DNA of 63,674 bases, counting the filler, from Hausera hauseri (taxonomy: Eukaryota), in the NCBI GenBank assembly GCA_046269625.1. It is 11 parts of 11 records of this genome, joined end to end, with 100 filler letters (N's around TTAATTAATTAA, not from the genome) between each part and the next. Parts side by side here need not be neighbours in the genome. Positions count along the whole stretch, not along the records: positions 1 to 9,647 come from JBJURY010322161.1; 10 more parts are not named here. One strand, written 5' to 3'. This document shows, piece by piece, positions 1 to 56,169 of the stretch. The translations under genes were made by a program, and so were the position numbers. Numbering within the stretch: position 1 is the first letter of the stretch; each line of letters starts with the position of its first letter. The notes beneath the pieces were generated by a model, which made no database searches, was not told the origin of the DNA, and saw nothing but the letters and a program-made list of their open reading frames with translations.

Positions 1-1
1 C

Positions 2-883
2 GCTCCCAACAAGTTAACAGGGACAAATCTTGCAAAAGGAATTACAGACGATAAATTTCAAGACACCTCGTCGAAAGATATATACAGGCCAAAGGAAATC
101 GAGGCCTTCAGACAATTCCTTGCCTTTCCACGACAACGAACACATGAGCTAAATCGAGCTATGGCGTCTGTAGTAGACGATACACGATATCAGGCTAAAT
201 GGGAATCATTACTTGGTGTGAACCACTATCAGAGAGTGACTACCGAAATACTCTACAAAATCTGGGGAAGATTTCTGGTTTTCGGACAAGCAGCATCCGG
301 ATTCTTAGCGATATATTTTTTGATACAAATGATTAAGGCAGTCATCCAAACAGTAATAAACGGATACGAAATATTTACACTGACCGGATTCTCATGTAAA
401 ATTCTGACCGCAATCATAACGCCCTTTGGAAAATTTTTAAAGGCATACGAAGAGAGTAGGTGGAAATCAGACGTAGAACGTCATGTCGGATGTCACAACC
501 GTAAACGAAGAAAAAAGCCTATATTCTTACGAAAGCAAAAATTTACAAAACCTATTACAAAAAGGAATGATTCAGATGACGACGAGCCTAAGGGAGGAGA
601 AGCATTTTCAGGGATGAATAGACACAAGGTGTACTCTGTAGTTAAAGCGCCATTACCCATGTTAACCCCTACCGCTCCATTCTACGAAGATTGTGACAAA
701 CGATCTATGAGCTCATACCAGACAGAAATTTATAAAAGGACAATTAATGTAGAAGACCCTTATGAAGGAACGAAACGATACGGGATTTTACGGAAAATGT
801 GTTACCGTCAATCCGCGGATGACCTTAAGATGATATATTCACCAAGCGAACCTAAGAATATTGAAACAAGATCGTCAGTTTGA
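2..883 (+). CDS. Env-like glycoprotein C-terminal part (chuvirus G / class III-like), 5'-truncated
   Basis: Frame is open from base 2. It reads DIYRPKEIEAFRQFLAFPRQR..LN, then WGRFLVFGQAASGFLAIYFLIQMIKAVIQTVINGYEIFTLTGFS (TM region), then a basic tail. This resembles the C-terminus of chuvirus-derived glycoproteins. Confidence 0.65.
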   Translation, partial: APNKLTGTNLAKGITDDKFQDTSSKDIYRPKEIEAFRQFLAFPRQRTHELNRAMASVVDDTRYQAKWESLLGVNHYQRVTTEILYKIWGRFLVFGQAASGFLAIYFLIQMIKAVIQTVINGYEIFTLTGFSCKILTAIITPFGKFLKAYEESRWKSDVERHVGCHNRKRRKKPIFLRKQKFTKPITKRNDSDDDEPKGGEAFSGMNRHKVYSVVKAPLPMLTPTAPFYEDCDKRSMSSYQTEIYKRTINVEDPYEGTKRYGILRKMCYRQSADDLKMIYSPSEPKNIETRSSV

Positions 884-961
884 GACAACCCAAGGCTAAA
901 AATCTTCCAACATACTGAACTACATACTAACAATCGGTAACCGCTAATTAGTACTCATGAA

Positions 962-1858
962 ATGGAAGAATTGCACGTGGAAAACAATGAATTATATCCA
1001 AACGTGGAGTTAAGGCAGTTGTCGGGAAACATAATATCCGCCCCAGAAGTAAGAATAAACGGACACAAAATATCAGTGACTAAACATTCGAAAGTGGCAT
1101 CAAACTGTTTTGGAACCGTGATCGAAGAAAGACCCTTTACCAAAATTATTATTGAAGACTGCAGAGTTTATGCGTTAATCGATACGGGTTCCGAGATGTC
1201 TTACATAAAAAATAATTCAATATCTCAAGCGCTAAGAGAACAATTATATCCGCCGTCTACGAAAGATCCAGGTAGTACATGAGCTTTTGGCCAAATGTCG
1301 AAACCAATATTTAAATGGAACCCACAAGTCTAATTGATTGGACCAACATTTCGGCACGAATTTGCAATCATGGAGCAATTACCTGATGATGTCGTTCTAG
1401 GATGCGATTTACTGAAAAGGCTACCAAATATAGCAGTCGACTTACAAACAGGAAAGCTAATTGAAATTAGACCAAACAACGGCGTGAAAAATGCTAAGAA
1501 TAGAAAATTCGGAGAAGTGTGGATACCAGTAGACGAGAACATCCCACCGAGAACAGAGATAACAATTTACGCACAGATTCAGCAAGATGACGATCAACCA
1601 GTATACTTTGAACCAAAGGAAACATTAAATCCAAATATAATACTCAGTAACGTACTTACGAGAGTACACTACGGTCGTGTGCCGATCAGAATAGCGAATA
1701 ATGCACCAACTCCTATCAAACTTTATGCTTATATCACTTTAGGGGGCACGTATAGAGTATCGTCGATAACTATTGAAGAGAAACCTTATAAATATGCTGA
1801 ATTTCCGTCTCACGTTGAAACCAAGTTTTCACCTGAGTCTTACTGTCGGTTCTATTAA
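962..1858 (+). pseudogene. Retropepsin aspartic protease plus spacer domain
   Basis: ALIDTGSEMSYI and VVLGCDLL motifs. Same frame throughout, with stops at 1280, 1331 and 1856. Confidence 0.85.
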
Positions 1859-3240
1859 CTATTATGTCGATATAAATCGATTATTGCTAAGGATGAAGAA
1901 GATATTGGTAGAGCGAAAGCATTAAAGTTGACTATTCCGCTCAAGAAAAAACCTGGTTCAAATGAAGAAATAGATCTAGAGGATCAGAAGATGCCGAAAT
2001 GGTACCCTCCACCGCATTCGCTAAGACCCGAGATAACAAAGGAAGTAGAACGAATGCTAAAAGCCGATATAATTAGGCCTAGTTATAGATCCTGGTGCTC
2101 GCCTATCCTTATGGTTAAAAAGAAAGGCACTACGAAACACCGATTTTGTATCGATTACAGAGCTCTAAATAATCTTATGATAAAAGATTCCTTCCCATTG
2201 CCTTCAGTAAAAGAGGCCTTAGACAGACTTTCAGGACCAAAATGGTTTACCACTCTGGACTTACAATCCGGATATTGGCAAGTGGAAATAGAGGACGAAG
2301 ACCGTTATAAGGCAGCATTTAAGACTCACGAAGGTGTTTACGAATTCAATGTTATGCCGTTCGGTATTACTACCGGGCCAGCCATATTTACAAGAACGAT
2401 GAACAAAATGTTAATGGGACTGGATCATGCCTTTGCATATTTAGATTATGTGATGATAGCATCAAGAAGGGAGGAAGAACACTTAAAGGATATTGAACAT
2501 ACGCTGATGCGTTTGGAACAGGTCGGATTGAAATTAAATCCAAAGAAATGCAAATGGGGTCAAAATGCAATATCCTACCTTGGCCATATAGTTGGAGAAG
2601 GAGGATCGAAACCAGATAAATCGCTGTTGAACAAAATATCAGACTGCATGGAACTACAAAATCAGCAAGAATTAAGGCACTGGTTAGGACTTTGTGGGTA
2701 TTATGCAACTTATGTGCCGGATAATTCGAAAATCAATGCACCTTTATATCGCTTACTTAAAAAAGGAATCAAGTGGAAATGGACAGACGTCGAACAGAAA
2801 GCCTTCGACGAAATGAAGAAGATATTGACGAGTGAACCTGTTTTGCAATACCCAGACTTTAACTTACCCTTCGTAATTAAGACCGACGCCAGTAAAGAAG
2901 GCATAGGGTATGAATTAGCACAAAAAAGAGAAGGTGAAGAATTAGAACATCCAATTGCCTACGGAGGACGTTCCTTTGAAGAAGGCCGAGAAAAATTATT
3001 ATGTTACCGAATTAGAAACTCTTGCTGTAAAAGAAGCACTTCGACATTTTAACGTTTATGTTTACGGGCAGAAAATCATAATTGTCACTGACCACAAGGC
3101 CGTTACGACTTTAAAGGGTCGAGCAAATAACCCAACATGCAGACTAAATAGATGGATTGAAGAAATCTCCAGATATAATATTGAATTTCAGTATAATCCA
3201 GGAAACAAACATGTAGACGCAGATGCACTATCAAGATTAA
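1859..3240 (+). pseudogene. Reverse transcriptase / RNase H
   Basis: Motifs RFCIDYRALN, LDLQSGYWQ, MPFG, YLDY (mutated YxDD), TDAS, ELETLAV and VTDH. Frameshift near 2975. Confidence 0.95.
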
Positions 3241-4724
3241 AGACTAAAACAAGCACCATTACCGTAATGAAGAAAAGTCAACTTGAGGAAATAATAGACC
3301 GCCAACGCACGTTAGCGATAGATAGGACAATCAAGATCTCAACAGAACAGAGAAAGGATAGAGTTATCCAGCAGATTATAGAATTTGCTAAAAAGGATAT
3401 TATACCAAAAGGACGACAATTAAAGAAACATTTACACAGACACGGACACAAGTACTGCGTCTTAAATGACGGAAATGAAAGAGACATTTTATTTTACGAA
3501 CGGAAAGGAAAGAAACTGATAGTTATTCCGAAGAGTTTACGAACCGAAGTATTGATGTCAGAACATGATTCATATTTGGCCGGACACATGTCCTGGAAGA
3601 AAACCTTAGAAAGAATAATGAATAAATACTTCTGGCCTAGCATCTATATTGATGTAAAAAATTGGGTAAATGCTTGTGAAGTGTGTGCAACCAAACAGAA
3701 AAAGACGAAAAACTACATGGCCGAGTTAAAACCAATTGACGTGCCCGATAGGCCCATGCAGGCCATGTCGATGGATATCGTAGGACCTCTTCCTACGACT
3801 CATAAGAACAATAAATATATCTTAACATGTATTGATCGCTTAACTCATTTTGTCGAATTGATCGCACTGATAGATCAAAAGGCCGAAACTTTGGCAGAAG
3901 CCGTTGTAAGGAGAATTATTTGTCGATATGGGCCTCCAGATCAGATACTCACGGATCGAGGAAGAAATTTTACCAGTGAATTATTTGAGAAAATCACTAA
4001 AATATTCGAAATCGAGAGATTAACCACTACTGCATATCATCCTCAATGTAATGGAATGGTCGAACGGATGAATGCTACCGTCATACGTATACTGTCGACA
4101 GTAGTGGCTAAGGACCAAAAAGATTGGGACGAATTTTTGGAAGGAACTCAATTTGCAATTAATACCACACCACATCCAGCGACAGGATTCACACCATTTT
4201 TCATGATGTATGGACGTGAAGCTGTGTTGCCCACGGACTTAGGAATGACGCCATACACAGTTAATCCCGAGGACTTAGAACAGAATTTTGCAGAAGTGTT
4301 ACAAACGCGATTGCAAAAGTGTTGGGAAATCGCTAAGGAACTATCCCGAGAATATCAAGAACAGTTCAAGAAGCAATATGATACGAGAGCAAAACCGCAT
4401 GATATAGAACAAGGAAATTGGGTTTATGTGCATTACCCAGCCGCTAAGAAAGGCACCTCACTAAAATTGACTCGTACGGGTAGAGGACCGTACGAAGTTA
4501 CAAAGGTTACTTCAACTACAGTGTATATCAACAGGAATGGAAAAGAAGAAGTTATGTCAGTACAAAGGGTTGTCAGTACAGAAATACGACCCAGAAAACA
4601 TTATAATCTACGCCAACGGGAGATAAAATCTTCGTCGATAGTTACTAGACCAATATTATATGTTCAGATAGTCTTAGCATTATCGTTGATTGCCTCCTAC
4701 CTCCCGAGAACACAAACCCAATAG
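3241..4724 (+). CDS. Integrase with a hydrophobic signal-peptide-like C-terminal extension
   Basis: HHCC zinc finger (H..GH..CEVC), catalytic motifs MDIVGP, TDRGRNF and NGMVER, and GPY. Ends YVQIVLALSLIASYLP. Confidence 0.93.
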
Positions 4725-6062
4725 TAGCACGATAAATCATTGTTAGGAGACATATACGGAATTCGGAAGAGTGGATCGAAATAGGAAACTACCAAGACGG
4801 AAGAAGCCAACAGCTGAAGAAATTCAAAAACAAGAAGATACGAAATTATTACAATTGATGACAATTTACTATTACATGCCAAACGCAGTATGCGTTGGAT
4901 TTAAAGCTTGGAAATCGCATCACGATTTCGGAAGATTTCAATTTTTCTTACTTGGCACAGTCACAAGAAGAACGAAAAATTGAGATTTCGAGCCTGGAGA
5001 AAATACGCAATGTTGCGATATAGATTTGGACACACTTATAATCTCACCTACCGTCTATACTTGCCAGACTCAACTGAAGTTTACGTTGAAGTAAAACCAC
5101 ATTCTCAATTAGTCGTTCCTGCATGGAACAGACATCATGGAGTAAAACTGAATGAAATATTACGGTCTACTGACCCAGATATAAGGATATTAGACGAAAA
5201 TATCCAGGGAATCTCTGTGGATAAGGAAAATCAATGCATTCAAGTAGACGCTAAAATAGGATTGGCTTTCAGCCAGGAAATTAATATCACATTTGAAGCC
5301 ACAGTCGGACCGACATCGAAAATAGAATATTGTTCTATTCAAGCAGGTGTGCAAAAACCATGCTGCAAAATACCCACAAACTAAGAATTCAAAATCAGAT
5401 TTGATTTATATGAAGTACGGCCAAATAAACCAAGTATACAATTAAGAACTTACTATCCAGAAAATAGAATTTGGAAAAATTCAGTGGAGATGACCACCAG
5501 AAGACCAGCTACTCAAATTAATGCTAATACGTCAACCATTACGTCGGCCACTGTGCCTAAAAAAGAATTAGGGAGTATCACTGTTAAATGTTCGGCATAT
5601 CGATCTAAGATTGTGTTCTTCGTGGAAGAGAAACAAAATTACGATATATACATAAGTTGTCGGACAACGTATAATAATCAAGTTGTGACGTTATTTAAAA
5701 GTACTTATCAAACAGAGTGCAACTTATTGAAACCACAAACCGAATATATAGTACAAATGCATGCGGAGAATAAACAGAACCAAACTATTACATTGAGTAC
5801 CTTAGGCGAAATTCGTGCCGAGTCGCATGTATATGAAGATATGGATGAGGAAATCACAGTTCTAGTTACCACACAAGTGCCAGTGAGATTAACTACACTA
5901 CCGATTATATCCATCTCTGTACTGTCTGTGTTCATTCTCATTATATTAATTGCAATTTTTAGGCTAGTTACCATAAACTGCTATTCTAAGCGTTCTAAAA
6001 ACTCAGAGTGGGAATTAAGGGAACTGAAAACCTCTGTTGACCCGTATGATAAAATAACCTGA
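4640..6062 (+). pseudogene. Putative type I membrane protein (Cys-rich domain, Thr-rich stalk, FN3-like domain, TM)
   Basis: ORFs 4908 and 5484 are in the integrase frame. Contains NQCI, EYC, CC, the FN3-like LKPQTEYIVQMHAEN, and TM ISISVLSVFILIILIAIF. Homolog at 23440-24736. Confidence 0.6.
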
Positions 6063-6129
6063 CAACTACAGAGCGGGTTATTTTATCATTTAACAAAGAA
6101 TTGGTTTAATTTTAAAACCATCCTTTGTC

Positions 6130-6163
6130 GTAAGATTAACCCTTACTGTTTATTTTTAGACAG
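6130..6163 (+). promoter_or_regulatory. Putative splice acceptor before the cargo ORF
   Basis: TTAAC...TTATTTTTAG directly before the ATG at 6164. Conserved in copy 2 (24848-24869). Confidence 0.5.
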
Positions 6164-8770
6164 ATGAGTAAAGAAAGAAATACGAAAACGAACACCGGAC
6201 AACCTAGGATCGACAGATCACAATCTACCCACAAGCCGGAACACTGTAGTACCGATGAATCGCCAAAACGCCGAATTAGTATCGACAAATTCTTGCAGAA
6301 TTATGCTACCGTCTTCCTCCCAAATTCTAAATCAATATATAGAGAAATACATAACGTATTACTTGAGAAAACCACCGTAAAGTATGATCGAACCTGTCAA
6401 ATTCCTAACAACCTAAAGGGTATAAGGGAAGAAAATAGGATTGTTTACCTCTACGCCATAAGAGAAGACAAAGATCTTCGAGGATACTTACTTAAACAGA
6501 TGATCACATACGCGAATAGACAGACTATTTATATCCATCTGACAGACAGTGAGATATATTATCGATTTAAAGACCAAGAATGGAACACAAACGAAGGAAG
6601 ACAATATAGATTCAGTACACTTAGCTTCCGTAGCCAAGATTTGCAACATTATGAGTTAAAATTCAGAGTAGCCGCCCTTCCCGTAAAAATAATGTTCGAG
6701 GTGACGCACGACGGTTACCAATATGTCAAATTACCACCCCTGAAGTTTTACCAACAACCGTCAGAAAAGGATTTGGACACATTCCTACAATCGTATAGAC
6801 TAGTGAAGGATGACAGAAATACCAGGATCATAGCAATTAATTGTGGAGAAGCAGACAATGCACAGAAAATCCCAATGGAAGTGTCAGTCCGAGAAACGAA
6901 CGGAACGGAGGTATATTGTACAGTCATCAGCCCAAGAAAACAAGTACGTGAGACGTATTATGATACGACAGGAATTCTCAAGGAAACACTCTCGAGAGGC
7001 AGAAACATGAAGCTTGTTCAATCCGAATTAGAACATTGTTTATATTGATATATTATAACAGGGTATCGCATTGATAACATTGTTGAACTATTAGAAATAC
7101 CCGTATCAAGCATCGCAGGAATGCGGGAAATAGGATCACACCCAGTAGTCGCCGAACAAAGTAAACGAATACTACGAGAAAGAAATTACCCCGCACCAAA
7201 AGTTATGGACTCCTATTTCAAATTAATGGTCGATGCCATGAACAGCGAACATGTTAAGATTAGCAAACTATTAACAGCAAGTCAGCGCACTCGCTACCTG
7301 CGCGACATATATGTAGCCTTAAAATGGGACCATGAGTAGACACCCAATAATCCAGAACAAAACCTACGAAGTATAACCGAACCGGAAAATATAAATAAAA
7401 GGTATGGGAAGCAGTATCGTTCATATTCCCCATGGAGAATTGTGGAACCGATGGGACGCGATAATATCAAAATAATTATTGAAAAACCAAGTCAACTGTG
7501 TACAGAAGTACCAAGTACCAGTTATAGTTCCTACGTCAAACCAATTCCAGAAATCAAATCCATAAGCAAAAAAATACAAACAGCCGAGATATTCAAAGTG
7601 CCCAAAATTCCACCGAAGAAGCAGAAAACTGAAACACAAATTTCTTCGATCAAAAGAAAATTATCCCTCTACGATTACTTGTTCAGAAAGAAAAATAAAG
7701 GAACAAACCCGAACCAAGTTTAAGAGAATCGACCCGATAAAACAAACAAAGAACCCGAAAGGTCAACAACGTCCGCCGACAACCAGGTAACAAGTCTAGA
7801 AAAACCCAGGAGATCGACATACAAACATAAGAACCCAGAAAGTGGATTTCAACAACTGTTTACGGAAGTTAACATTCTCAGAAAACGGAACTCCCAAGAA
7901 GATGTTCATTTTGCGACAACCAAAGATAATCCAAGGATATTAATAACAACTGAGTATTATAGTCGCCAGACGATCAAAGAAGCAACGTTTTTTGTAAAGA
8001 CCACGCCAGCTCGAGAAGTATATAAAAATACCTACATTTGGGAAAACCCTAAAATAGGGAAATACATCGTGCCAGTTTTCCTATCAAAGAGAAACGGCAA
8101 GCTAACAGTGCCAGTAGATAAACAAATGAAACCTTTGTTGAAAAGACAGTATCAAAAGTATAAAACGGATGGCGAAATTCCCGATTTAGATCGAGATACC
8201 ATTGCCAATTGGATATTAGTACCAGTAGGTTGTGACCCCAGGAAGAGTTCTGTAAATCCCAAACAAAAAAGAATCCATGGTTACCTATATTAGGATAAAG
8301 ATGGTCTCATATTCGAACCCATAGAGCTTGTAATAAAGGTAGATTTAGATGACGAGAGATGGGATAAAGAGGAAAACGAATGCCCATTATGTGAAGCAAA
8401 TCTCAGTCAAGGATACGTTATTTTGGATAACCGCGATTGTCGACATAAATATTGCAGAGATTGCTTGGAAAAATAGACCCTAGATAATGGCAAAACTACC
8501 TGTCCGGTGTGTAGAGCCGAGGAAACTGAACTTAAATATTTTTCAAACGGTAGTTATACCCGTGTAGTTCGCATAAGGCCCCATTACAGTTATGAATTAG
8601 AAACGAATACTAGAGAAGAAGATCAAACTAGTACCAGTTCTGGGCCCAGTTTAAGACAACGAATGGAATTACTACGAGACCCTCGTCGCCGCTGCACCTC
8701 TCCTGACGCAATGGGCACATCCGAGGATGCCGTTCAGGCTGAGAAATGTTGTAAAGACGTCTATAATTAA
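6164..8770 (+). pseudogene. Cargo ORF: DEDDh/REX4-ISG20-like exonuclease fold plus C-terminal C3HC4 RING
   Basis: ORFs 6164, 7121, 7442, 8069 and 8507 share one frame and are broken by single stops. Exonuclease-like part: RIIAINC..EVSV..NG..VISP..TTGI..VQSELEHCL..IITG. RING (8381-8512): CPLC..CRHKYCRDC..CPVC. Confidence 0.7.
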
Positions 8771-9562
8771 GAAGACGTCCAAGTTATAAATAGCGTTATA
8801 ATCAGAATATTGTAGATATTTATTATTTTACGATATTTGCTACTATTGTACGAAATTAGGAATTTGTACAAAATTAAAGAAGAAATTTAGCAATAAATTG
8901 ATATATTTTTAGAATTTTTGAAGAAAAGGTTGAATTTGTATTAATTTTTAAACCAGAAAATACCGAAAATTCAGTTAAAATTGATTATAATTCCAAGAAT
9001 AAATCAGTCACGTACACAGTCGTATTACTGTATAAACTAGCAGGTTTTAGAACAATGTGAGTTTTTGTGAAGCCACTGAGCTTTAAACCTGCGAAAAGTT
9101 GTCTTGATTAGATTGAAGCTATTGGAGACTATTGTACTTCCTTAGAGACGTGAAGCCGAAATACTATATTGCCGAAAAGAAGAGGATTCTAGAAGCTGCC
9201 AAGGAGCACAAATTCAGAAAACTAGTTGTTGATTTCGATTTGATACGTGGAGCATTGTGTAATTGTTTGGTATAAATATATTGTTTATTGTAAAATTCTT
9301 ATATAGTTTTTCATTGCCCCTTAAGGGTAATTTGACGACATTAAGGTCTTATAATTCACTGTAAATTATATAGGTAAGAGGAGAATTTATAATCATTTGC
9401 AAAGGATCGCAAGCAGTACACGCACTACTGATTAGTTAAATTGATTTAAGGTACATTCTGTCTACGCGATTACGGTAGACCTCACCTGTGTAAAATATTA
9501 CCTTCAAGTGTAACTATTGTTATATAGATGGAGTTGTATAAGGGCCACCCCAGTATATAACA
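8747..9562 (+). repeat. 3' LTR of copy 1 (~816 bp)
   Basis: TG...CA ends with an imperfect inverted repeat, preceded by a short purine tract. Shares motifs with the copy 2 LTR (GCAGTACACGCA, ACATTAAGG, AGGGCC). Unrelated RT sequence follows immediately. Confidence 0.75.
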
Positions 9563-9647
9563 AATAGCATCGTCGAATGTTCAACAACATTTGAACGATT
9601 TACAAGATTTATTCGACAGATGCAAAATAATGGGTTTAAAAATAAAT
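9563..9647 (+). pseudogene. RT fragment of another LTR element (insertion target)
   Basis: Translates IASSNVQQHLNDLQDLFDRCKIMGLKIN, the segment that follows YxDD in RT. Confidence 0.7.
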
Positions 9648-9747: not shown

Positions 9748-10968
9748 ATTCAAACGGAAATCGGACATCGATAATTTGATGATTGAAGAACCCTTTGGGT
9801 GAAAGAATTAAATAAAGAGAAATATTCTGATCACGATTAGAGACTTAATCGTCAATATCGGATAATGGGGTATATGTTACATCTGCAACATCAAGAAATA
9901 GCACAGTTCTATTGCAGAATTTAATAAATTGTGACGCGTATTCTGCCATTTGCTGGGCAGTTGGTTTGGATGATTTGTCTGATATACGTAATCTTCCTTT
10001 TCCATCAATGCTGGCATTGTACCAAAATGACTACTTAAGGACGCATCAGTTTTTGATAACTGGTAAAATCGTCCTGAACACATTTCTAGTAATTGTTAAT
10101 AATAGAAAAGTTATTTTGAGCAAAAATCAGAAATTTTCGAGGCGGAAGATCTGGCCCGACTATGGTCTCAACGCGGCGGCAATGGACGTCCGGCCGCGTC
10201 CGACCAAACAGACCAAAGGGCACCGGCCGCCGTGGGCACCACATCACCCCCGTGGCAAAATGAAAACTATAAAGAACAAAATAGACGGAAAGAAAAATCG
10301 CCAAACGAAAAGTGTATGTATCAGTTGGTCTTAGTGTGAACAAGACGTTGGGTGTCTTCTGTAGTGCCTTGAATGTGGTTGCACTGGTTGGTGGATCGAT
10401 GAGGAGATCTTCCCCGCCAGGTGACTGTGCTTTCGTTCCAGTGCTGAAAGTGAAAGAATGGCTTTGAAATATACAAACAAATTCTCTGCATTTATCTCCT
10501 ACAATCTGAGTATTATCACTCACTCAGCAAAAAAATTCTCAATAGAACATTTTATACGGGTTAAAGAATCAGACTTCTCGCAAACGACGAAATCAGTGAA
10601 ATGACGTATGTCGTACAGCTCTTTTCAACCAAAATCGTTACGTCATTCCATACTCTTACAACTTTCCCTTCTAACAGGCAGAAGAATATAGGCAAGTTTG
10701 GATACATGGTGGATACAATTCGTGCAGCTCGTCTTAGGTTTTATTACATGATCGGACTATAAACAAATTCTGTAAATAAAATTGTAAAAACGGATTAATG
10801 ATTTTGAAATTTCAAGAGTTTAAAAAAATATAAAGAATTATTCTAATGTGGACTTCTTGATTTGGATTTAACTAATCTATTCATGGGTTCATCATCAAGG
10901 AAATCATCAAATATCTTTTTATCATCTTCGGAATTAAATCATGCATCTTTGATGTGGAAACTACATTC

Positions 10969-10983
10969 TGGTGTCAGAAGTGG
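10969..10983 (+). promoter_or_regulatory. Primer-binding site (tRNA-Leu-like)
   Basis: TGGTGTCAGAAGTGG lies 3 nt after ...CTACA and upstream of a gag relic. Confidence 0.65.
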
Positions 10984-13900
10984 AATTTTTTCATTGATTT
11001 GCGCCCACCAGTGTGACCATTTTTTGCGCATATGCAGACCCTTCCTGGCTCAAACCATTTTTCATTTTAAAGGGTTTTTAAGCTTAACATCTTTGGATAT
11101 TCCTTTATCCCAATCATCACGTGCCACCGCTAGCCCGGCTATGCACTCGAACCGCTTTTTAACCCAAAAGGTAATCGCCCAAGCCCCCAGCTCATTTCAT
11201 CGCTCCCCTGGGATGACCTCATTACATTTATCTTTCCTGGTCTTTAGCTACAATCAACACATTAAAACCTTACAAGCTCCACTCAACGAGACAGCACAGT
11301 TCTTATATAATGCTTTATCCGCATCACATAACACTTCTGATTTTTATTTCACATATCAAAGGCTTATAATACATCCTTCAGACTCCTTTTTGTCTTTCGT
11401 ATTCCACGAGCTTTCAGACACCTGTCTCATGCTCCATTCTGGCCTACGGGTGGATCGGACTCCGATCCTTCATATGCGGAAAACCTCATTAAGACCAGAT
11501 CTGGTCGTCGTCCTGCCGACCCCACACTAATTACATCTCCAAATCTCTCTTGCACAGATTTATTTCTCGAAAAGACAAATTCGAGTCGTACCTGGTTACA
11601 ATTCCATTTGCAATGGCTTAAGGCCAATCATATCACAGATTCCTTCTTGTGGACGAACAGTTTGTTGCTACTACTTACAGTTAATATCAAGCAGCAAATC
11701 AATAATCTCGCCGACATACTAACCACTACAAATCCTATATGATATGCTTTATGAATCAGTTCTGCACATTACCGACCTATTATTGAAAGCATAATTCAGA
11801 AATACTTTAATGAACATGCCATCGAAAATCAAAAACCATCGGATTTCCTTAAAACTGCAATGTTTCAACTGAGTTCGTTAGGCATCACTCCTATAAACAA
11901 TGACAATCTTCTTCGTCAGTATTTTCTTTCATCCTTGCCGACCTCCATCAGAGCGCTGCTCACTGTAGTAAACGAGTCAACAGCCTTGAAAAGCTCGCCT
12001 TATTGGCAGACAAAAGCTTTGACATTTTGCAGTCTAATAGGTCGCAATTAGTAGCTGCAGCAACCGCTTACACACCTTCACACACAGATAGCACTTCATT
12101 TTCACAACAATTGCAAATGATGCAGCAACAGTTTGACGAGTTACAGTCGATTTTGGCCATTACTACCCAACTAAATAATCTTAATGGGCCTCGACAAAGT
12201 GAAACCAGGCCTTTAAGGAAGAGAAGCATTTCCAGACACTTTGCTCGATTCATGTCACCTGGCGGACGCATGGCTTGTTTCTATCACATGCGATTTCGAA
12301 GGGATACTAGGAAGTGCTTTTTGGGTTGTCGGTTCTATAGAGAACGGTACGCTGTGGACAACCCTATTTGTGTCTACCACAATAAGTTCCAGTCACAGGC
12401 TAGATCATGCGTGTCTGGTTGTAAACATTACAACGATAAATCTCCTCGCTTTTCTTCGTCTTCTTCCTTTTCTCCAAAACATTCAAAAACTAATAATGCC
12501 GCCAGATTTTACGGCACATTCTGGCGCAGGCAATATCGCTCAATCTTCTAGCCGTTTCAACACCGCCTCCGCAGTCTTTCTATTGAAAGCTGTACTGTTA
12601 TGCAGAGATACTTCACATATCAACTTCCTTATAGACCCAGGAGCTGCCTTTTCGCTCCTTCCCTTGTCCTTCGTTCTTACATCGACTATGATTTCCTGTC
12701 CACCGCTTTTCACTGCCAGTGGTCAACGGTTGCACGTTGCAGGAACCACGGAATTGACTTTTACATTCACCAACTTGCCAGATAAGTTTATCTGGAAGTT
12801 CCACGTGGCCAACATTAAATCTCCCATTATAGGCTCAGATTTTCTTGCGCCCCCATGATCTATTGGTCGATTGCAAATACAGCTGTCTTTTAAGCAGGAA
12901 CGCAATTGCAACTCCAAACATGTGGCTGGTAGAAAACTTAGCGAGCAATTCATTGCACTCATCTGTGAACATGTTGAACGCTTCGTCATCTATAAAAACG
13001 TCCGATAAAGTCGGTAATATTTCAATTAACAACAATCATAAATCTATTCTAAAACAAAAATCCAAATTAGCCGTCGACAGTCGCGATGCCAGTTGCTTTT
13101 CGTCAACCACTGGAGCTGTTCTCTCTAATGATATGCCTCATGCATTCTTATCTCTACACTCCGACCTTAAATCATATGTCACAACGTCTTTCTTTCGCAT
13201 AGTTAAAAGGGACGTCAACTTCTAGCCTCCATCCACAACTTATCATCACATAGTAACAGAGCATCAGAGGCCGATCAAACAAAAGGTCAGATCTTTGTCA
13301 CCACGCAGACGTAAAGCTGTTGAACAGGAATTTAATGAACTGGAAAGGTCTGGCATTATTCGGAGATCGAATTCACCGTGGGCCTCTCCTCTTCATATAG
13401 TGGTAAAGAAAGATTGTACCTATAGGCCATGTGGCGACTACCGACAATTAAACAATCTAAATATTACAGATACCTATCCACTACCACTCGTTAAAGATAG
13501 TCTTCATAGCCTCAACAACACCAATGCCTATTCTACCATTGATCTGAACAAGGCCTACCATCAAATTCCTGTTTCCCCTGATGACATTCCAAAAACTGCT
13601 GTCATCACACCATTTAACCTTTACGAATACATCTTCATGCAATTCGGCCTACGTAGTGCATTTCAGACCTTTCAGCGCCACGTTGACACCGTTCTTTCTT
13701 GACTAAATTTTGCTCACCCATACATAGATGACACATTAGTCGCTTCCAGCTCCAGCAAAAAACATCATGAGCACCTTAGAATCATTTTCCACAGATTACA
13801 TCAAAACAACCTGCAAATTAATTTCGCTAAATGTAATTTCTTCCAGAAACGCGTTAACTTCTTAGGCCACATAATTACTCCCGAAGGGCATTCGCCCCAG

Positions 13901-14288
13901 CCTGATCGCTTGCAACAATTAACAAATGTGACGTTGCCAACTATTACTACCGATATGATGAGTTTTCTAGGGTCATCGCATTTCGTACACAAATACGTGC
14001 CACAGTGCTCCGAACTAACGGCACCTTTCGCACATCTCTCATCTGGGAAGAAAAGATAATAAATCCATTGGACTCCCGATCTAGTAAACCAATTTGATCG
14101 CCTTTGTGAAGGTCTGAAAACTGTGGAAATCTTGGCCTTTCCAAAGCCAAAAGCTGAACTAATATTAACTACCGATGCCTAAACCACAGCAACTGGTGCG
14201 ATATTACACCAAATATACAATCGCGTCAATGAACCATTAGAATTCTAATCCCGAAAGCTCACTCAATCGGAAAGCCGATACTGAATAT
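10969..14288 (+). mobile_element. Degenerate Ty3/Gypsy element (gag-pro-RT-RNaseH start)
   Basis: gag: KPSDFL..YFLSSLPTSIRALL and two CxYHxxF..CxxGC motifs. Protease: FLIDPGA, IIGSDFL. RT: SPWASPL, RPCGDYRQLN, YIDD. RNase H start: TTDA. Many stops and frameshifts. Confidence 0.9.
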
Positions 14289-15358
14289 NNNNNNNNNNNN
14301 NNNNNNNNNNNNNNNNNNNNNNNNNNNNNNNNTTAATTAATTAANNNNNNNNNNNNNNNNNNNNNNNNNNNNNNNNNNNNNNNNNNNNGGGAGAAAACAA
14401 AACCTTGTAATGCAGACGAGACACATCCTGTGACAGATGAAATCTGATCCGTCCTTCTCTGAGGACGTCTTTGTCTCCCTGGACCCGTCTTGCAAAATGT
14501 GGATCCTGAGACTCTGACACCTCAACCCCTTCGTGGACCCGATACAGGACTGCCTCTGACAGAGTCTAACAAACTGCAGAGAATAAACAGGTCTGTCCAG
14601 GATCTGTCAGGTCTGCTAGTGAAGGTTCATTCCAGGGTGATGTTCTGGTTCTCCTCTGCCTGATAGGAGCTCTGGCTCACATTCACTACAAATGTTGCTG
14701 CTGGAGAGACGAATAGGGAAAGAGAGGATCAGAAACACTAAGAATTGGAACTCGTCTACAGAGACCAAAATACCACAAGAACTGAATATTTCTTTGGAGT
14801 GAAACTGAAGGTCCAAACTGCCCACAGATATGAGGGGAGGATGAGGAGCAGCAGCAGCTTCATCCTGGGAGAGGAGACACGACACATCAGGTCAAAGATC
14901 TGCTGGACTCTCACAGTTTTTATTGATTGTTTTGACGCAGCCTTCAACTCAAAATCCACATTTTCAAAACAGTTAACGCAGAGCCTGGAACAGTGCCACA
15001 GTGGTCAAAACACAACATTTTGTTTGCAAAAGGCACTAACTCTGGCAAAACATTTAAAATATGGAACAAAGGCAAATTTTGCCTTCAACCACTCAACTTT
15101 GACACAACTTTATGAGCACCTCCAATCAGTCATTACACACCGGGCAACAAAATACAAAACGTTGGTTACGTATTGTAACCCCAGATTCTATGAGTGTAAG
15201 CGTAGCCCTCTAAGGCTGTCGCTGATGGGTACCCCCCGCGCTCGCGCGCATTCTGAAGAACCAATAGTCTACGCCCACGTACCGTGTGGCCCCACCTACG
15301 GTCCCCTTAAAAAGGCAGACCGGACCGGAGGTCAGCTCCCTCAATTTTCTTCAGCTTC

Positions 15359-16795: not shown

Positions 16796-16810
16796 CTGGC
16801 GGGGGGGGAA

Positions 16811-20338: not shown

Positions 20339-20860
20339 TGCATTGTGTTTGAAAAGGAAGATGAGACAACAGCAGACAACCCCCGGAACAATTATTCATG
20401 CATAATAAGTTCCTTACACACTGGGGTTTTTTCGTTTATTATGGATTCATGAGATGTCACAGAGATCTATGTGTAACAAGCTGATTTGTTCAAACAGAAT
20501 CTACTGTGATCATCATGTGGTGTGATACATCACTGGGGGTGTAGAGCGGAATTCTGTTAAGCCGGCGAGGCGCGGACTACATCGGGCTCCGCCTCTATAC
20601 CCATCAGCGACAGCCTTAGAGGGCGGAGCTTACACGAAATAGAACGTTGGTTACGTATTGTAACCCCAGATTCTATGAGTGTAAGCGTAGCCCTCTAAGC
20701 GCTTGGCCTCACCGGCTTCCAAAGCTGAAGAAAAAGCTTTTTCGGGAGCTGATCTCCGGTCCGGTCTGCCTTTATGGGGACCATAGGTGGGGCCACACGG
20801 TACGTGGGCGTAGACTATTGGTTCTTCAGAATGATTGTTCCGTTTCTTCTTCTTCTTTAG

Positions 20861-21683: not shown

Positions 21684-22170
21684 CTGAATGACTTCGTTAA
21701 CGACTTAACCTTCATCCGCGACGTTGCTAAAATCAAACAGGTGGGTCTGAAGGGGGAGGGGGGATCTGCTGACATTTTCTCATCCAGTTTGAGCTGAGCT
21801 GGTTCAGAAGAACTTAGAGAAACGGGAAAAATCCCATCATAGGATCACCAATTAAAGGGGCAGTGTTTTAGCGTCACATCATCTTATGTTGTTCCCTCAT
21901 CAAAAACAAAACCTGGAGCGTTGATGTGATTCTTTCACGCTAGTTTGTGAAATCCTTTAATCTCCATGGCAACCATTCAGCTGTGCAAAACGCCTGGGAG
22001 AAGCGAGCCCCGCCTTCGAGACGCAGCTCCTCCTCAGAGAGGCGGCTTCAGCCTCACAGAGCAGCGCTCANNNNNNNNNNNNNNNNNNNNNNNNNNNNNN
22101 NNNNNNNNNNNNNNTTAATTAATTAANNNNNNNNNNNNNNNNNNNNNNNNNNNNNNNNNNNNNNNNNNNN

Positions 22171-23618
22171 TACAACAAATTATGAAGTTCGTTGATACTA
22201 ACAAAACGCCAAAGGGTCATCAGTTACGGAAACATCTACGACGATATGGTCACAAATACTACGTTGCTGGAGATTTGAACCACGGAAACGTGTTATAATA
22301 CGAACGAAAGGGACGAAAGTTGGTAGACATACCAAAAGGATTGAGTACAGAAGTACTAATGGCCGAGCACGATTCGTATTTAGCCGGACACATGTCGTGG
22401 AAAAAGACCATAGAAAGAATCTCGAATAAATACTATTGGCCGAGCATTTACATCGACGTGAAAAATTAGGTGAGTACTTGTGAAGTGTGTGCAACCAAAC
22501 AAAGAAAAGTGAAAAACTATATCGCCAAACTTAAACCTACCAACGTGACCGATAGACCAATGCAAGCAATGTCTGTGGATATTGTATGACCGTTACCTAC
22601 GACCCACAAAAGCAACAAATATATTTTGACCTGTGTAGACCGATTGACTCATTTCGTCGAGCTTATAGCGTTATTAGACCAAAAGGCCGAAACCTTAGCA
22701 GAAGCGGTAGTCCGGAAAATTATTTGCAGATATGGGCCACCCGAACAAATCTTGACAGACCGAGAAAGGGACTTTACGAGTGAATTGTTCGATAGAATTA
22801 CCAAAATTTTTGAGATTGAACGACTAACTACCACAGCTTATCATCCCAATGTAATGGAATGGTCGAGCGGATGAACGCGACCATTATACAAATCCTATCG
22901 ACAGTAGTCGCAAATGACCAGAATGATTGGGATGAGTTCTTAGAAGGGACACAATTCGCCATCAATACTACCACGCATCCTGGACAGGATTTACTCCGTT
23001 TTTCATAATGTATGGCAGAGAAGCTGTACTAACTACAGATTTAGGATTGATTCCTTACACAAAGAAAATGGAAGATTTGGAACAGAATTTTGTCGAGGTA
23101 TTACAAGTGAGATTACACAAATGTTGGAAAATAGCCAAGGAAGTATCTAAAAAACACCAAGAACAGTTTAAGAGGCAATACGACAAAAGGTTAAGCCACA
23201 CGACCTGGAACCAGGGAACTGGGTCTACGTGCACTATCCTGTAGCAAAGAAAGGCACATCTCTTAAACTCACCCGGACAGGCAGAGAACCTTACGAAGTT
23301 ACCAAAGTAACATCAACCACAGTTTATATAAATAAAAACGGCAAAGAAGAGGTCATATCGATTCAGCGAGTAGTCAAAACGAAAATAAAACCAAACAAAT
23401 GCTATATTTTGCGTTCGAACAAAACAAATGAAGAAAAGAAAACGTCGTCGATAGTAACCAGACTAATATCGTATGTACAAATAGTCCTCACCTTATCGTT
23501 AACCGCTTCATATATGCCCAAGGCAAAGTTGACAACTCAAAGAGAGAAATTGCAATATGCGGCGAAACGAAAAGATATCCAAAACTTACAGTCACTTAGA
23601 GTAAACGATATGGATTGA
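22171..23618 (+). pseudogene. Integrase (frameshifted)
   Basis: CVDRLTHFVELIALLDQKAETLAEAVV, MYGREA and YVQIVLTLSLTASY are nearly identical to copy 1. Confidence 0.92.
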
Positions 23619-24879: not shown

Positions 24880-27309
24880 ATGGCCGAGAAGGCGAAGAAT
24901 TCAGCAGTCAGTCCCAATTTCGATATCGATGATTTCCTACAGCAGCACGTCACTGTTCTCAAGCCACTGTCCAAAAGTCTATACCGACAAATTGGAGAAA
25001 ACATAAAAAACCGGAACTATTTAGAATTTGACCAAGAGAGTAAAATACCAAATGGACTAAAATGGGGCTTAGAAGAGAATCGACTGGTTTGATTATATGC
25101 CATGCGAAATCCAAAGAATGCACGGGCATACCTTTTAAGAGACCTGATTCCATATGAGCCGACACATCAGCAATTGCACGCACATGTCGCTGATGGAGAA
25201 ATTCAGTACAGGATCGTAGGACAGTCCTGGAGTACACAAAAGGGACAGAAATGAAAGTTTAGTACCTACGAGCTATGTTGCTATAGCCTCATGAATTACG
25301 CTCTAGAATTTCGGATCGCGGACCTTCCGACCAAAATCATGATCGAGATGACGTTGCGAACGGAGGTAATGAAGCCACTACCACCGTTACCATATATACA
25401 GAAGCCATCAGAAGATGAGATAGAACAAAATGGGGAATCCTACAGATTAGTTCCAGACGGTAGAAACACCCGGATATTAGCCGTAAACTATAGAGAAAAG
25501 GATGACGGATGGTATGTTCAGATTGAGGTCTTTATCAGAAATACTAATGGAGAAAAGATTATAAATAAAATAATCGCACCTCGAGCTAGGATAAAGGATA
25601 CTTTCCCCGACGTTACAGGAATTACGAAAGTACAGCTCGAAAAAGGAAAAGATTTCTTGGAGATCCAAGAAGACATAAGCCACTGTTTCTATGGATATAT
25701 TGTCACCGGATTCCGAGTGCACAAAGCGTTGGAGCGACTATGAATTAGGCAAGAGTACATAGCCGGAATACGAGAATTGAGCCGAAACCCAGCCGTTGTG
25801 AGCCAAGTAGAAAATACCTTGATGTGGAAAAGAGGCTGCCTGCTTCCGTCAGCATCGCGCGAATCCCAATTTAAGATGACAATAGAAGCCATGAATGGCG
25901 AACGATTCAAATTTCCTCAGCTGATGTCAGCTAATCAACGGACCAAATTTATAAAAGATATTTATGACTCGTTACGATGGGACCACGAGTGGAAAGCCAG
26001 AAACCACATGCAAAATGCAACATCCGACAACAACCCCAAAGTCCTGATACAAAAATTCCGAAAAGGGTTTAGTGAATACCCTGGTTATCGACAAATCGAA
26101 CCCCGAGAACATAACCGATTCCGAGTAACAGTTCCGAATAATCCAATAGAAGCCCCTAACAGCCGACAAAAACCGACGACCAGTCAAATTCAAAAATAAT
26201 CAATATCAGATAACCTGGACAATTCAAGAAAGCAGAAGACAAAAACTTCCTTCCTGGAATATATTAGTAAAAAAAGAAGCAAATCTAGTAAAAATCAAAC
26301 AGACGAGAATAAACGAACATCCGGCAGCCAAACCCCGAAGGAACCGATAAATGACCCAAAGGAAATATCATACCAACGAGAATCTAAAGAAAATAACGAA
26401 AGTTGATTAAGAATTACCAAAACAGGAACCTTTAAGACAGAAGTCAACGTTCTTTGGAAGAACTGGGAGGAAGATACCCCAATTATAGTTACAGAATTCG
26501 GCCAAGTGAAAGAATACAAAAGAATCCTCGTCATGGCCGAATATTATAGCAAGGGAAAAATCAAAGAGGCTATATTTTACGTATCTACCGTTCCTAGAAG
26601 AATAGTAAGCGGAAATGCATATGTCAGAGAAGATACCACTATTGGCAGATATCTAGCCGCAATATTCCAGTCGAAGAGCGGCACTAACAGATTGACGATT
26701 CCCGTGGATACCCAAGTTAGAATTCAATTAAAAAGACAATACAAGAAGACTGGAGTACTCGATTTGGATAAACAAGAAATAGTCGAATGGACCCTAGTCG
26801 CGGTATCCGACGATCCGAGAAAAAGCTCAATAGACCTCAATCAAAAGAGATTGTACGAATACTTGTACCAAGACAAAAAAGGACTGGTATTTGAGAGAAT
26901 AGAAGTGGACAAAAACTTTGTGGACATTAATGCATCTGAAAAAGAAAAATGTCCCGTTTGCGATGCGGATCTCTATCAAGGATTCGTAGTATTGGACAAC
27001 AAAAATTGCAGTCACAAATATTGTCGGTACTGCTTAAAAACGTGGACACTGAAAAATGGGAAAACGACCTGCCCAATATGCAGAGCCGAAGCTACCAGGC
27101 TAAGATACTACTCAAATAGAGAAAATAAGAAGATAGTAGAGATACTACCCGAACAGGCCACTACGTCCTATCCTTTTGACTTACAATCGCCGTCGAACGA
27201 ATCGGATTCAGAAGTGGACTTACGCGGACGAATGGACCGATTGCGCGGCACCTCTACTGACGCACTGGGCACATCCGAGAGTGCCGTTCAGAGAGGAGAA
27301 ATGTTATGA
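24880..27309 (+). pseudogene. Exonuclease-fold plus C3HC4 RING cargo ORF, copy 2
   Basis: ORFs 24814, 25291, 25777 and 26506 share one frame. Exonuclease-like part: RILAVNY..IIAP..VTGI..IQEDISHCFYGYIVTG. RING (26950-27081): CPVC..CSHKYCRYC..CPIC. Confidence 0.72.
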
Positions 27310-28086
27310 GATGGCAGTAAAACAGAATTATACATATGTAAATAATAGCGAAACTGAAAAACGAAACCGAAAGTGAAACCGAAACTAACTAAAAATGAAA
27401 AATTAATATTATTTAGAATTAACCAGTGAATCTGTAAATATGAAAATAGTTTATTGGAACGCAAAATTATTTATTATTCTTGAAATACGGAAAGAATTAA
27501 ATGAAAATAGCAGAAAATTATTTGTAAATAATAATGGGAAAATAATTGCTTATGACTGCCAATTATATAAGGCAGTACAAAATCAGTTACCCGAACATTA
27601 GTGAAGTTGTAAGTTGGCATTGATCGAGCTGTTGGAAAAGCTCAGAGATTTAATTACTTTTCGAATTATTGAAACGATATTGCAGTTGCCGAGCTAGCAG
27701 AAGCTCCGAGATATCCGACATTTGTGAAGAAGATCTCAGTTAACATTGAACTTGAACGATTGTAGAAACCTTCTTGACGACTGTATCGTCTGGTATATAT
27801 TTGTTTATTGTCAATAAATTTGTATTCTAAAATATTCTTATAGTTTTCTGTCGCTCCTTACTAGGACCTTGTACCACATTAAGGATTAAAATCACATTAA
27901 ACTTCATAATTAAGTTGAGAATTTGTAAACTATGCAAGGCACCGCTCGCAGTACACGCATTTTAAAATAGTGCAAACATTCTAACGAGAACGTTAGGACT
28001 TATCTGCTTATAATCACTGTTTTAAACTTAAGTTTCAATATTGTTATAGTTGGGTGTTGGATAGGGCCCACCTTAAACTACTAACA
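27302..28086 (+). repeat. 3' LTR of copy 2 (~785 bp)
   Basis: Preceded by the PPT AGAGAGGAGAAA. Ends TGTTA...TAACA. Contains TATA-like and AATAAA motifs, and motifs shared with the copy 1 LTR. Confidence 0.75.
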
Positions 28087-56166: not shown

Positions 56167-56169
56167 CAA

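Follow-up and report, generated by a model that had tools for sequence, protein, structure and literature searches.

Two decayed Ty3/gypsy elements in the Hausera hauseri assembly with a gB-type envelope, a second membrane protein and a predicted AlkB-like/ISG20-like/RING accessory protein

The locus raises the question of what a Ty3/gypsy element carries in some 4 kb between its integrase and its LTR, and whether this sequence belongs to the element at all. The window, i.e., the whole stretch of 63,674 nucleotides (filler included) that was analysed, consists of parts of 11 records of the assembly GCA_046269625.1 joined by N spacers, and on two of its contigs, 1-9562 (copy 1) and 22171-28086 (copy 2) are decayed Ty3/gypsy elements. 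The gene order given by the original prediction (glycoprotein, PR-RT-RH, IN, second membrane protein, exonuclease-fold/RING ORF, PPT, LTR) was recovered on the first contig by Pfam matches, hydropathy and the LTR junction, where it reads as a chuvirus-like envelope, PR-RT-RH-IN, a signal-like segment, an FN3-like membrane protein, the accessory ORF (cargo), the PPT and the 3′ LTR. The extra coding sequence, predicted at about 4 kb, measured about 4.0 kb from the integrase stop at 4724 to the LTR.

Layout of the two copies

The features, all on the + strand, are as follows.

2..883, +, envelope glycoprotein of chuvirus-like type (gB-type, class III), C-terminal part including the membrane anchor and cytoplasmic tail; the contig starts inside it
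941..1858, +, decayed aspartic protease and PR-RT spacer (stops at 1280, 1331 and 1856; weak RVP match, E 0.0034, below the Pfam cut-off)
1859..2971, +, reverse transcriptase and first half of RNase H (RVT_1 E 1.1e-35, RT_RNaseH_2 E 4.9e-20)
2946..4724, +, rest of RNase H and integrase (H2C2, core, GPY-type C-terminus) with a signal-peptide-like end (Integrase_H2C2 E 2.6e-19, rve E 1e-15)
4725..6062, +, second membrane protein, likely type I, copy 1
6041..6163, +, conserved non-coding spacer before the cargo ATG (101/129 aligned bases identical to copy 2)
6164..8770, +, whole accessory ORF, copy 1, one frame, 868 residues (internal stops 7046, 7337, 7721, 8291 and 8474)
8736..8746, +, polypurine tract, partly decayed, adjoining the TG at 8747
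8747..9562, +, 3′ LTR of copy 1, 816 bp, TGTT...AACA
22173..23528, +, copy 2 integrase in several frames, followed by the same signal-like segment
23529..24736, +, copy 2 second membrane protein, alignable from 23738
24880..27309, +, copy 2 accessory ORF with five internal stops, none common to copy 1
27290..28086, +, copy 2 PPT (27290-27301) and 3′ LTR (27302-28086, TGTT...AACA)

The predicted recurrence of the post-IN order in copy 2 held, the membrane proteins of the two copies being 36% and the cargoes 39% identical (the latter over 846 residues). The integrases, which had been taken for nearly identical, proved to be much more distant (69-77% at the amino acid level, 73% over 1302 bases at the nucleotide level, pS about 0.8). 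Because of this distance and the saturation of synonymous sites, the two copies represent separate families. Similarity between them extends through the PPT region (87% identity at 8690-8750; the copy 2 PPT is a purine-only 12-mer) and the junction 8746/8747, and ends with the LTR: the flanks beyond it gave a copy-to-copy score of 10 vs. a shuffled mean of 13.6, no better than the shuffles. Both contigs lack the 5′ end and bear the 3′ LTR alone; no second LTR copy was found within the window, and on the copy 1 side any gag and most of the envelope ectodomain would fall beyond the contig.

The order PR-RT-RH-IN with an H2C2 and DDE integrase, colinear with gypsy-type Pols, assigns the elements to Ty3/gypsy (Metaviridae), and its best RT relatives carry gypsy-type domain sets (identity 35-47% over the top 120). 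In translation, the catalytic motif of the copy 1 RT is devoid of the second Asp, and a frameshift lies near 2975. The envelope matches PF24664 (E 4.5e-21, residues 21-160, window 62-481) and is 32% identical to the env of the relative P0211 (E 1.7e-20). It shares one frame with PR, from which it is separated by stops at 881 and 938, and the PR motif lies near 1180; from about 1125 on, the PR-RT region follows P0211 and P0209 colinearly. A gB/chuvirus-type envelope stands immediately upstream of pol, just as in the GAG-ENV-POL errantiviruses with gB-type envelopes. Of this layout, function aside, we are highly confident.

The membrane protein behind the integrase

The integrase frame ends with a signal-like hydrophobic segment at about 4638-4694 (residues 565-583, hydropathy 1.95; 1.58 at the matching place in copy 2). 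The second membrane protein that follows is built in copy 1 of a Cys-containing N-terminal part, a Thr-rich linker, an FN3-like unit (about 5580-5760), a transmembrane segment (5904-5960, hydropathy 3.2) and a short tail, the region 4725-4988 being interrupted by stops and frameshifts. FN3 membrane proteins were its top Atlas matches (0.90-0.91, 165-169 shared features), at scores near the chance range. Copy 1 gave no Pfam match at E 1, the protein had no match in the PDB, and a search with the IN end plus membrane region returned no match at E 1e-15 among 4320 candidates.

Intact Pol relatives bear the same post-IN membrane protein. P0211 is an intact single gag-env-pol-membrane ORF of 3735 aa that contains a capsid-like domain (Ty3_capsid, weak at E 0.011), zf-CCHC (E 5.4e-6), PF24664, PR, RT, RH and IN, and its five hydrophobic segments are all where expected. 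P0209, an intact single ORF of 2226 aa, runs from env through pol and a signal to an Ig-like tail with a hydrophobic end; profile comparison detected no homology of this tail to the window membrane protein. The membrane-protein profile matched the tails of P0089, P0094 and P0095 above all 200 shuffles each, with weak profile scores, and in P0095 the module occurs a second time, upstream of PR. A hydrophobic post-IN tail was present in 4 of the 99 Pols screened (those with an IN match), and these four, together with the shorter P0092 from the cluster of P0209, make up the top five IN matches to the window. In RT+IN trees the tailed Pols group with the window (FastTree 0.989 with 90 sequences, UFBoot 89 with 27 of the 90); the latter value is moderate, and the window sits on a long branch. 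Three distant cargo loci (L001, L010, L014) also have a membrane-protein ORF upstream of the cargo, preceded directly by PR in L010 and scoring 1.8% in hhalign in L001.

The membrane protein had been regarded as an additional cargo gene. Its fusion to IN in the intact relatives suggests, at the level of sequence, that it is likely the end of the polyprotein instead.

Domains and conservation of the accessory protein

The accessory ORF extends over the PPT into the LTR in copy 1, and in copy 2 its stop codon lies within the first bases of the LTR. The spacer before it ends with a pyrimidine tract and AG just 5′ of the cargo ATG, a candidate splice acceptor; both copies have such a site, as do 8 of the 14 distant loci, vs. 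78 of 806 other ATGs. The junction motif of the window also stands behind the cargo in 5/14 distant loci (shuffled mean 0.044). Neither RT nor IN was found in any of the 14, so that among the records examined Pol and cargo stand together only on the two window contigs. Counts over these loci are not independent, because they come from two samples and about five subfamilies.

The structure model of the cargo (pLDDT 85, pTM 0.81) confidently contains AlkB-like and ISG20-like domains. The domains of copy 1 are the following.

6266..6715, +, domain 1, predicted AlkB/2-oxoglutarate-dioxygenase-like double-stranded beta-helix (model), metal ligands absent
6818..7336, +, domain 2, predicted ISG20/REX4-type DEDDh exonuclease fold (model), catalytic carboxylates and His absent
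7859..8353, +, domain 3, conserved, after a variable basic linker (51% amino acid identity between copies, pN/pS 0.34)
8375..8515, +, domain 4, C3HC4 RING finger (zf-RING_2 E 1.7e-6; zf-C3HC4 above cut-off)

Residues 1-150, taken from the whole cargo model rather than folded alone, matched Ofd2 (Z 10.4, rmsd 3.1, 136 aligned), ALKBH6 (Z 10.0), AlkB (9.2) and ALKBH5 (8.9), and Foldseek added vaccinia C16 (E 8.2e-4). The signature of AlkB/2OG-Fe(II) dioxygenases is an HxD...H iron triad with a 2OG-binding Arg. Both are absent at the equivalent strands, mapped by fold topology and not by residue-level superposition, in all A2 rows reaching them. Domain 2 matched human ISG20 (Z 19.1, rmsd 2.1, 156 aligned; the next row had 14.6; Foldseek E 6e-8), and the cargo family profile matched ISG20L2 (E 1.4e-23), while neither window copy gave a Pfam exonuclease match. 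The ExoI acids are absent in 4/4 close cargo sequences (both copies, P0003, P0004) and the ExoII and ExoIII residues in the three of three that reach them; in the wider cargo family, 9 of 23 rows keep the ExoI and ExoIII motifs. The predicted exonuclease fold is thus backed by structure prediction, whereas its catalytic residues are lost, and the domain is predicted to be a pseudo-nuclease of the ISG20/DEDDh type, not of the DEDDy type of rotifer ORF3, which was rejected for the window on these grounds. Domain 3 had no Pfam match, and its P0003 equivalent no Atlas match. In the RING (pN/pS 0.33; best PDB matches RNF4 and TRIM5), eight zinc ligands are kept in C3HC4 spacing in both copies and P0003. 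The RING and the third domain are confined to the window lineage, so the idea of an E3 ligase does not reach the wider cargo family.

With synonymous sites at or near saturation, pN/pS came out at 0.49 for the cargo, with purifying selection on every folded domain, and at 0.63 for the membrane protein, the fastest-evolving ORF, and not near 1, the value named beforehand as speaking against the prediction. An intact cargo homolog, P0003, exists (870 aa, 38% identical). These comparisons of sequences, together with the intact Pol relatives, support the proposal of a complex-retrovirus-like lineage whose accessory genes were kept by selection before the copies decayed. The AlkB-like domain, the loss of catalytic residues, the FN3-like unit and the in-frame fusion of the membrane protein to IN did not figure in that proposal.

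Proposed mechanism, rival readings and known relatives

We somewhat favour an envelope-before-pol Ty3/gypsy lineage that would combine a membrane-threaded polyprotein bearing two glycoproteins with a spliced accessory RING ligase, whose dead-enzyme binding module would act against host defence. Gag-env-PR-RT-RH-IN-membrane protein is one ORF in the relatives and presumably was in the window elements. Judging from hydropathy, internal signal segments would direct both glycoproteins into the ER, Pol would stay cytosolic between the envelope anchor and the second signal, and signal peptidase and the element's protease would free the parts. The chances are about even that fusion is the task of the gB-type protein, and attachment or a decoy function that of the FN3/Ig protein; such a division of labour is that of herpes- and paramyxoviruses. 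The accessory ORF is probably translated from a spliced RNA. A little less than evenly probable, as a joint proposal, is that RNA or a host partner is the target of the AlkB-like + ISG20-like module and that the RING, a predicted E3, ubiquitinates a silencing or restriction factor.

The candidate splice acceptor, the dead nucleic-acid-enzyme folds and the basic linker would also suit a regulator of the Rev type, which would bind unspliced RNA of the element to promote its export or packaging, comparable to CERV in the case of Cer1 of C. elegans (PMC10309623). This would leave the anatomy unchanged, but the folds differ, no similarity to CERV was shown, many cargo family members retain nuclease motifs, and a canonical C3HC4 RING under selection points to ubiquitination; we consider such a regulator improbable. 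Slightly less doubtful is a role of the second membrane protein outside the virion: as a captured mimic of a host receptor, it would be exposed on the host cell, either to exclude superinfection or to serve as a cytokine-receptor decoy. Its Atlas neighbours are FNDC and cytokine-receptor-like proteins, it evolves fastest, it differs among relatives (FN3-like vs. Ig), and it is duplicated upstream of PR in P0095; against this, the in-frame Pol fusion would couple its synthesis to that of Gag and Env, as would suit a virion component. Very improbable, and already largely refuted, is the view of the post-IN ORFs as neutrally decaying host genes or accidental neighbours of a gypsy fragment. No 5′ LTR or TSD is visible on the contigs, and host genes commonly contain RING and DEDDh domains, but the same order recurs in two families with saturated synonymous sites, the ORFs are intronless, the accessory ORF runs into the PPT and LTR, the copies cease to be similar where the LTR ends, and contigs of two public runs cover 30/30 bins including the cargo, mostly at <95% identity.

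The remaining rival concerns novelty. GAG-ENV-POL errantiviruses with an HSV/gB-type envelope are known from Nematoda, Bryozoa and Platyhelminthes (PMC13524379, citing Sacco et al. 2022); like the window elements, they have a glycoprotein of the gB/chuvirus type right before the PR of a Ty3/gypsy Pol, and this arrangement is therefore already described, env before pol being also known in Burro. The original prediction, which did not recognise the combination, falls in this part and stands for the post-IN membrane protein and for the AlkB-like + ISG20-like + RING protein, neither of which was found described in the literature searched; compared by description only, the errantiviruses of PMC13524379 have no such membrane protein or accessory ORF. 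The lineage may nevertheless already be catalogued, among the bryozoan/flatworm elements or in Repbase, with only the annotation of the extra parts being new, a reading to which we give roughly one chance in three. In its favour, PMC13524379 lists gB-type GAG-ENV-POL elements as such, and arithmetic on its table (3 kb flanks assumed) shows an unannotated stretch of 1.1-2.2 kb ahead of the downstream LTR in the six bryozoan rows, of ten, for which LTR coordinates are given; eight of the nine flatworm rows have no LTR within range. Against it, the main text never mentions exonuclease, fibronectin, RING, immunoglobulin or accessory, the seven supplementary files contain no exonuclease, fibronectin, AlkB, RING or ISG20, and the best 120 RT relatives are only 35-47% identical, none of them being named as a GAG-ENV-POL errantivirus.

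Other elements resemble the window in single parts. In the available sections of PMC6431247, the giant planarian Burro/GYPSM1 encodes a single huge polyprotein, in which env stands in frame with the gag and pol on either side of it, and carries ubiquitin- and apoptosis-related domains, including a RING-containing motif; unlike the window, its env is described as gypsy-Env/mononegavirus-like, the extras lie mostly upstream of pol, its size is 25-30 kb, and these sections mention no AlkB-like or ISG20-like gene. Rotifer Juno/Vesta elements have a DEDDy/RNase D-type ORF3 with intact catalytic residues in place of env (PMC5408684), whereas the window domain is dead, of the DEDDh/ISG20 type, fused to AlkB-like and RING domains, and present alongside env. 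Orchid Gypsy elements share a 2-oxoglutarate-dioxygenase-fold accessory ORF, there a recent ALKBH5-like capture with conserved cofactor residues (PMC9289625), in contrast to the remote fold match of the window, devoid of metal ligands and fused to a nuclease fold. Vaccinia C16/C4, viral counter-defence proteins with a 2-oxoglutarate-oxidase-like N-terminal domain (PMC9674614), share the fold only, their C-terminal domain being unrelated. Anakin elements, as far as the consulted parts of PMC7642597, PMC13524379 and PMC10084718 describe them, also captured a chuvirus glycoprotein but have a BEL/Pao Pol; this identity was rejected, the element ORFs having no BEL-specific Pfam family and gypsy-type best RT relatives. 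Troyka was rejected as well: in the description available it has CG...CG termini and no envelope vs. TG...CA termini and an envelope here.

Tentatively, and with less confidence than in the mechanism above, we suggest an undescribed, widespread clade of nearly retroviral invertebrate elements with two-glycoprotein entry (a gB-type fusogen and an FN3/Ig attachment protein in one gag-env-pol polyprotein) and its own AlkB-like/ISG20-like accessory family, the nuclease being active in some branches and the protein a pseudo-enzyme RING E3 directed at host defence here. The AlkB-like + ISG20-like module marks out a family of retroelement-borne proteins, some of them catalytically complete and others dead, and the intact natural homologs P0003, P0211 and P0209 make the activities testable in isolated proteins. 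The finding bears on two questions about invertebrate LTR elements with an envelope, namely whether they are genuine infectious viruses and how they cope with host silencing: a second surface protein and a conserved accessory gene are additions that a complex virus would be expected to have, and this lineage has both. If the suggested clade is real, a complex-retrovirus organisation would have arisen independently within Metaviridae.

Anatomy of the element and its diverged partner

The feature itself is real, and we consider its anatomy, as read here, to be highly probable. It lies on two contigs:

1-9647: copy 1, a decayed Ty3/gypsy element (1-9562), with the accessory (cargo) ORF at 6164-8770
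22171-28148: copy 2, its diverged partner (22171-28086)

Copy 1 starts inside a glycoprotein, the C-terminal part of which has a match (E 4.5e-21) to the chuvirus-type fusion family of the Monjiviricetes. The envelope is followed by PR, RT, RH and IN in the Ty3/gypsy order; stops are scattered over this Pol region, with a frameshift near 2975, and a single reading frame is common to the envelope, PR and RT. A hydrophobic segment closes the IN frame; the same frame then continues into a membrane protein, which contains a linker rich in Thr and a strong transmembrane (TM) segment. Beyond a conserved spacer comes the cargo ORF of 868 residues with five internal stops, and then a PPT and an 816-bp TG...CA LTR. 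Rfam gave no matches anywhere in the window.

The gene order of copy 1 is repeated in copy 2, which bears out the original prediction that the post-IN order recurs on a second contig. The accompanying claim that IN is nearly identical in the two copies turned out to be wrong: identity is 69-77% in IN, 36% in the membrane protein and 39% in the cargo, and synonymous sites, except in the short tail, are saturated or nearly so (pS 0.68-0.90), so that the copies represent two families. Since this saturation left the Jukes-Cantor dS uncomputable for most regions, we used uncorrected pN/pS (bootstrap intervals in brackets), in which the protein-guided alignment pushes pN down somewhat. The values were 0.18 (0.15-0.23) for IN, 0.63 (0.54-0.75) for the membrane protein and 0.77 (0.49-1.36) for the tail; the dN/dS comparison of the cargo ORFs proposed earlier took the same form and gave 0.49 (0.44-0.54), with 0.34 in the third cargo domain and 0.33 in the RING. 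Both cargo ORFs have kept one frame over ~2.5 kb. The results show that selection acted on the element ORFs. An alternative genetic code was rejected, as all three stop types are present and no cargo stop is common to the copies. The resemblance between the copies stops at the LTR end, the flanks beyond being unrelated.

The other contigs of the window are heterogeneous, and therefore those of copy 1 and copy 2 need not share one organism; the intronless LTN1 and the very different DIRS contig hint at a mix of organisms.

Features of the other contigs
9748-14288: second gypsy-type element, decayed and unrelated, with pieces of RT (33% to copy 1 RT) and PR-like pieces
14389-22070: GC-rich DIRS-like element that looks young; its ORFs are long, open and overlapping: gag-like (494 aa), RT/RH (731 aa) and a 1180-aa frame presumably ending in a tyrosine-recombinase-like part
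15249-15357 with 20722-20833, and 15158-15214 with 20643-20699: its terminal-type repeats, inverted and direct
28249-34275 (-): decayed Endonuclease_7 pieces, contig taken by us to be Maverick/Polinton-like
35676-36107: BEL/Pao DUF1759 fragment
40774-41526: 128-bp tandem array, about 6 copies
41662-42958: pair of adjacent ORFs rich in Cys, with a Pfam RING match in the second; neither matches the element cargo in tblastn
46569-47362: Tc5/pogo transposase
48263-49132: ALDH stretch
49909-54018: listerin/LTN1 E3 ligase, 1369 codons without introns
55205-59275 (+): decayed Endonuclease_7 pieces and type-B DNA polymerase matches, presumably also Maverick/Polinton-like
59378-63144: collagen exons

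The accessory protein

A HMMER scan of 1.84 billion proteins with the cargo returned 82 matches. Two of them are close: P0003, whose ORF of 870 aa is intact (E 6e-236), and the partial P0004. The remainder trail off into relatives that have the RING alone, the exonuclease alone or two domains. A word-index search with the N-terminal half of the cargo found no match among 2128 candidates, whereas the full HMMER scan did; scans of viral_contigs gave no matches.

The predicted fold depended on the depth of the input, with pLDDT 27 for two sequences and 85 for a 23-row alignment. In the latter model (window 6266-7336), two folds are predicted: residues 185-357 are ISG20-like (Z 19.1 against the human protein, 156 residues aligned at rmsd 2.1), and a fold like that of AlkB-type dioxygenases spans residues 1-150 (Ofd2, Z 10.4, rmsd 3.1, 136 aligned). 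C-terminal to the ISG20-like part lie a conserved domain of unknown fold, which has no match in the protein-similarity resource Atlas, and a C3HC4 RING, both limited to the window lineage. The ExoI acids are absent from both copies, P0003 and P0004, and 9 of the 23 alignment rows retain the ExoI and ExoIII motifs; the AlkB metal triad is missing at the equivalent strands, assigned by fold topology, from every row that spans them. The cargo lacks its catalytic residues, and its RING ligands are present. Vaccinia C16 (described in PMC9674614) was also among the structural matches.

Relatives of Pol, the second membrane protein and distant cargo loci

The RT search returned 861 proteins, the best 120 of which are 35-47% identical; together with P0209 these made up the Pol set screened (n=121). 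IN was matched in 99/121, and a post-IN hydrophobic tail was present in four of these 99 (P0089, P0094, P0095 and P0209), which along with P0092 are the top five IN matches among the 121. The window clusters with the tail-bearing relatives in RT+IN trees (FastTree 0.989, 90 sequences; UFBoot 89, 27 of the 90), a grouping that has moderate support and involves a long branch.

In the intact relatives, all of these parts are joined in one polyprotein. P0211, which falls in the same cluster as P0089, consists of a single 3735-aa ORF that encodes, in order, a Gag with capsid-like and CCHC parts, an unassigned region, a signal, a chuvirus-type envelope, an anchor, PR, RT, RH, IN, a signal, an ectodomain and a TM segment. 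From the envelope onward, P0209 follows this plan, with an Ig domain; a metagenome scan with P0209 gave no matches. P0211 apparently also carries a tandem pair of protease-like domains (~2018-2260), and P0095 has an additional signal-to-TM membrane module (1-235) 5′ of PR.

The profile of the window membrane protein scored the tails of P0089, P0094 and P0095 above 200/200 shuffles each (E 5e-7 to 7e-5); the P0209 tail was not above shuffles. Atlas neighbours of its C-terminal part are FN3 membrane proteins (0.90-0.91), an assignment that neither Pfam nor PDB confirmed. A search with the IN end plus the membrane-protein region gave no matches. As a lead, late-domain-like motifs occur in the envelope cytoplasmic tails of the window (about 665-680), P0209 and P0211 (against shuffles, p 0.054, <0.001 and 0.13, respectively), P0209 alone reaching significance.

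Metagenome scanning with the cargo yielded 15 loci; L015, a bacterial-looking DEDDh neighbourhood, was removed, leaving 14 that trace to two samples and fall into about five subfamilies. RT or IN was found in 0/14. A window-type PPT/LTR junction motif lies 3′ of the cargo in 5/14 (shuffled mean 0.044, maximum 1), an acceptor-like site lies 5′ of the first ATG in 8/14 vs. 78/806 other ATGs, and a membrane-protein ORF precedes the cargo in L001, L010 and L014. These 14 loci suggest that the cargo family is retroelement-borne, Pol and cargo not being together in any, and the cargo possibly also resides in internally deleted elements. In L010 (3-1679), a retroviral-type protease is fused directly to a signal/Cys-domain/Thr-rich/TM protein, with the cargo gene next and no RT or IN between; this locus is possibly a non-autonomous derivative. 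Short related coiled-coil ORFs between the membrane and cargo genes (two in L001, 1773-3058; L002, 588-1166) are read as further accessory genes.

Known systems and the proposed mechanism

The envelope-before-pol frame is already known: GAG-ENV-POL gB-type elements occur in nematodes, bryozoans and flatworms (PMC13524379), and Burro has env in frame between gag and pol (PMC6431247); chuvirus glycoprotein EVEs are covered by PMC10084718. Cargo-type features are not mentioned in the searched text or the 7 supplementary files of PMC13524379. Rotifer elements bear intact DEDDy ORF3s (PMC5408684) and orchid elements an active ALKBH5-like ORF (PMC9289625). Exonucleases in nematode LTR elements, cited in the original prediction, were not confirmed in PMC5408684, where the word "nematode" is absent. 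Troyka (PMC12440569) was rejected as the identity of the element. Our search of the open literature found no description of an IN-fused membrane protein or an AlkB-like/ISG20-like/RING gene, and neither the second glycoprotein nor the pseudo-enzyme RING gene seems to have been described so far. As the comparison covered open papers, the lineage may already be catalogued by its Pol, whether in Repbase, Dfam or GyDB, in subscription papers or among the GitHub sequences of the eLife paper.

The main rival explanation of the accessory protein is a role in RNA export like that in CERV (described in PMC10309623). We lean slightly towards the following mechanism as a whole. Pol would lie on the cytosolic side, flanked by two glycoproteins, of which the envelope may act as the fusogen and the second membrane protein as an attachment or decoy protein; the accessory protein would be translated from a spliced mRNA, and its binding module would steer a ubiquitin ligase onto host defence. 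Contigs from two public runs (29070 and 2104 contigs), one of which may be the source sample, cover 30/30 bins, their depth not being a copy number, mostly at <95% identity; the family is therefore diverse, and the cargo is part of it.
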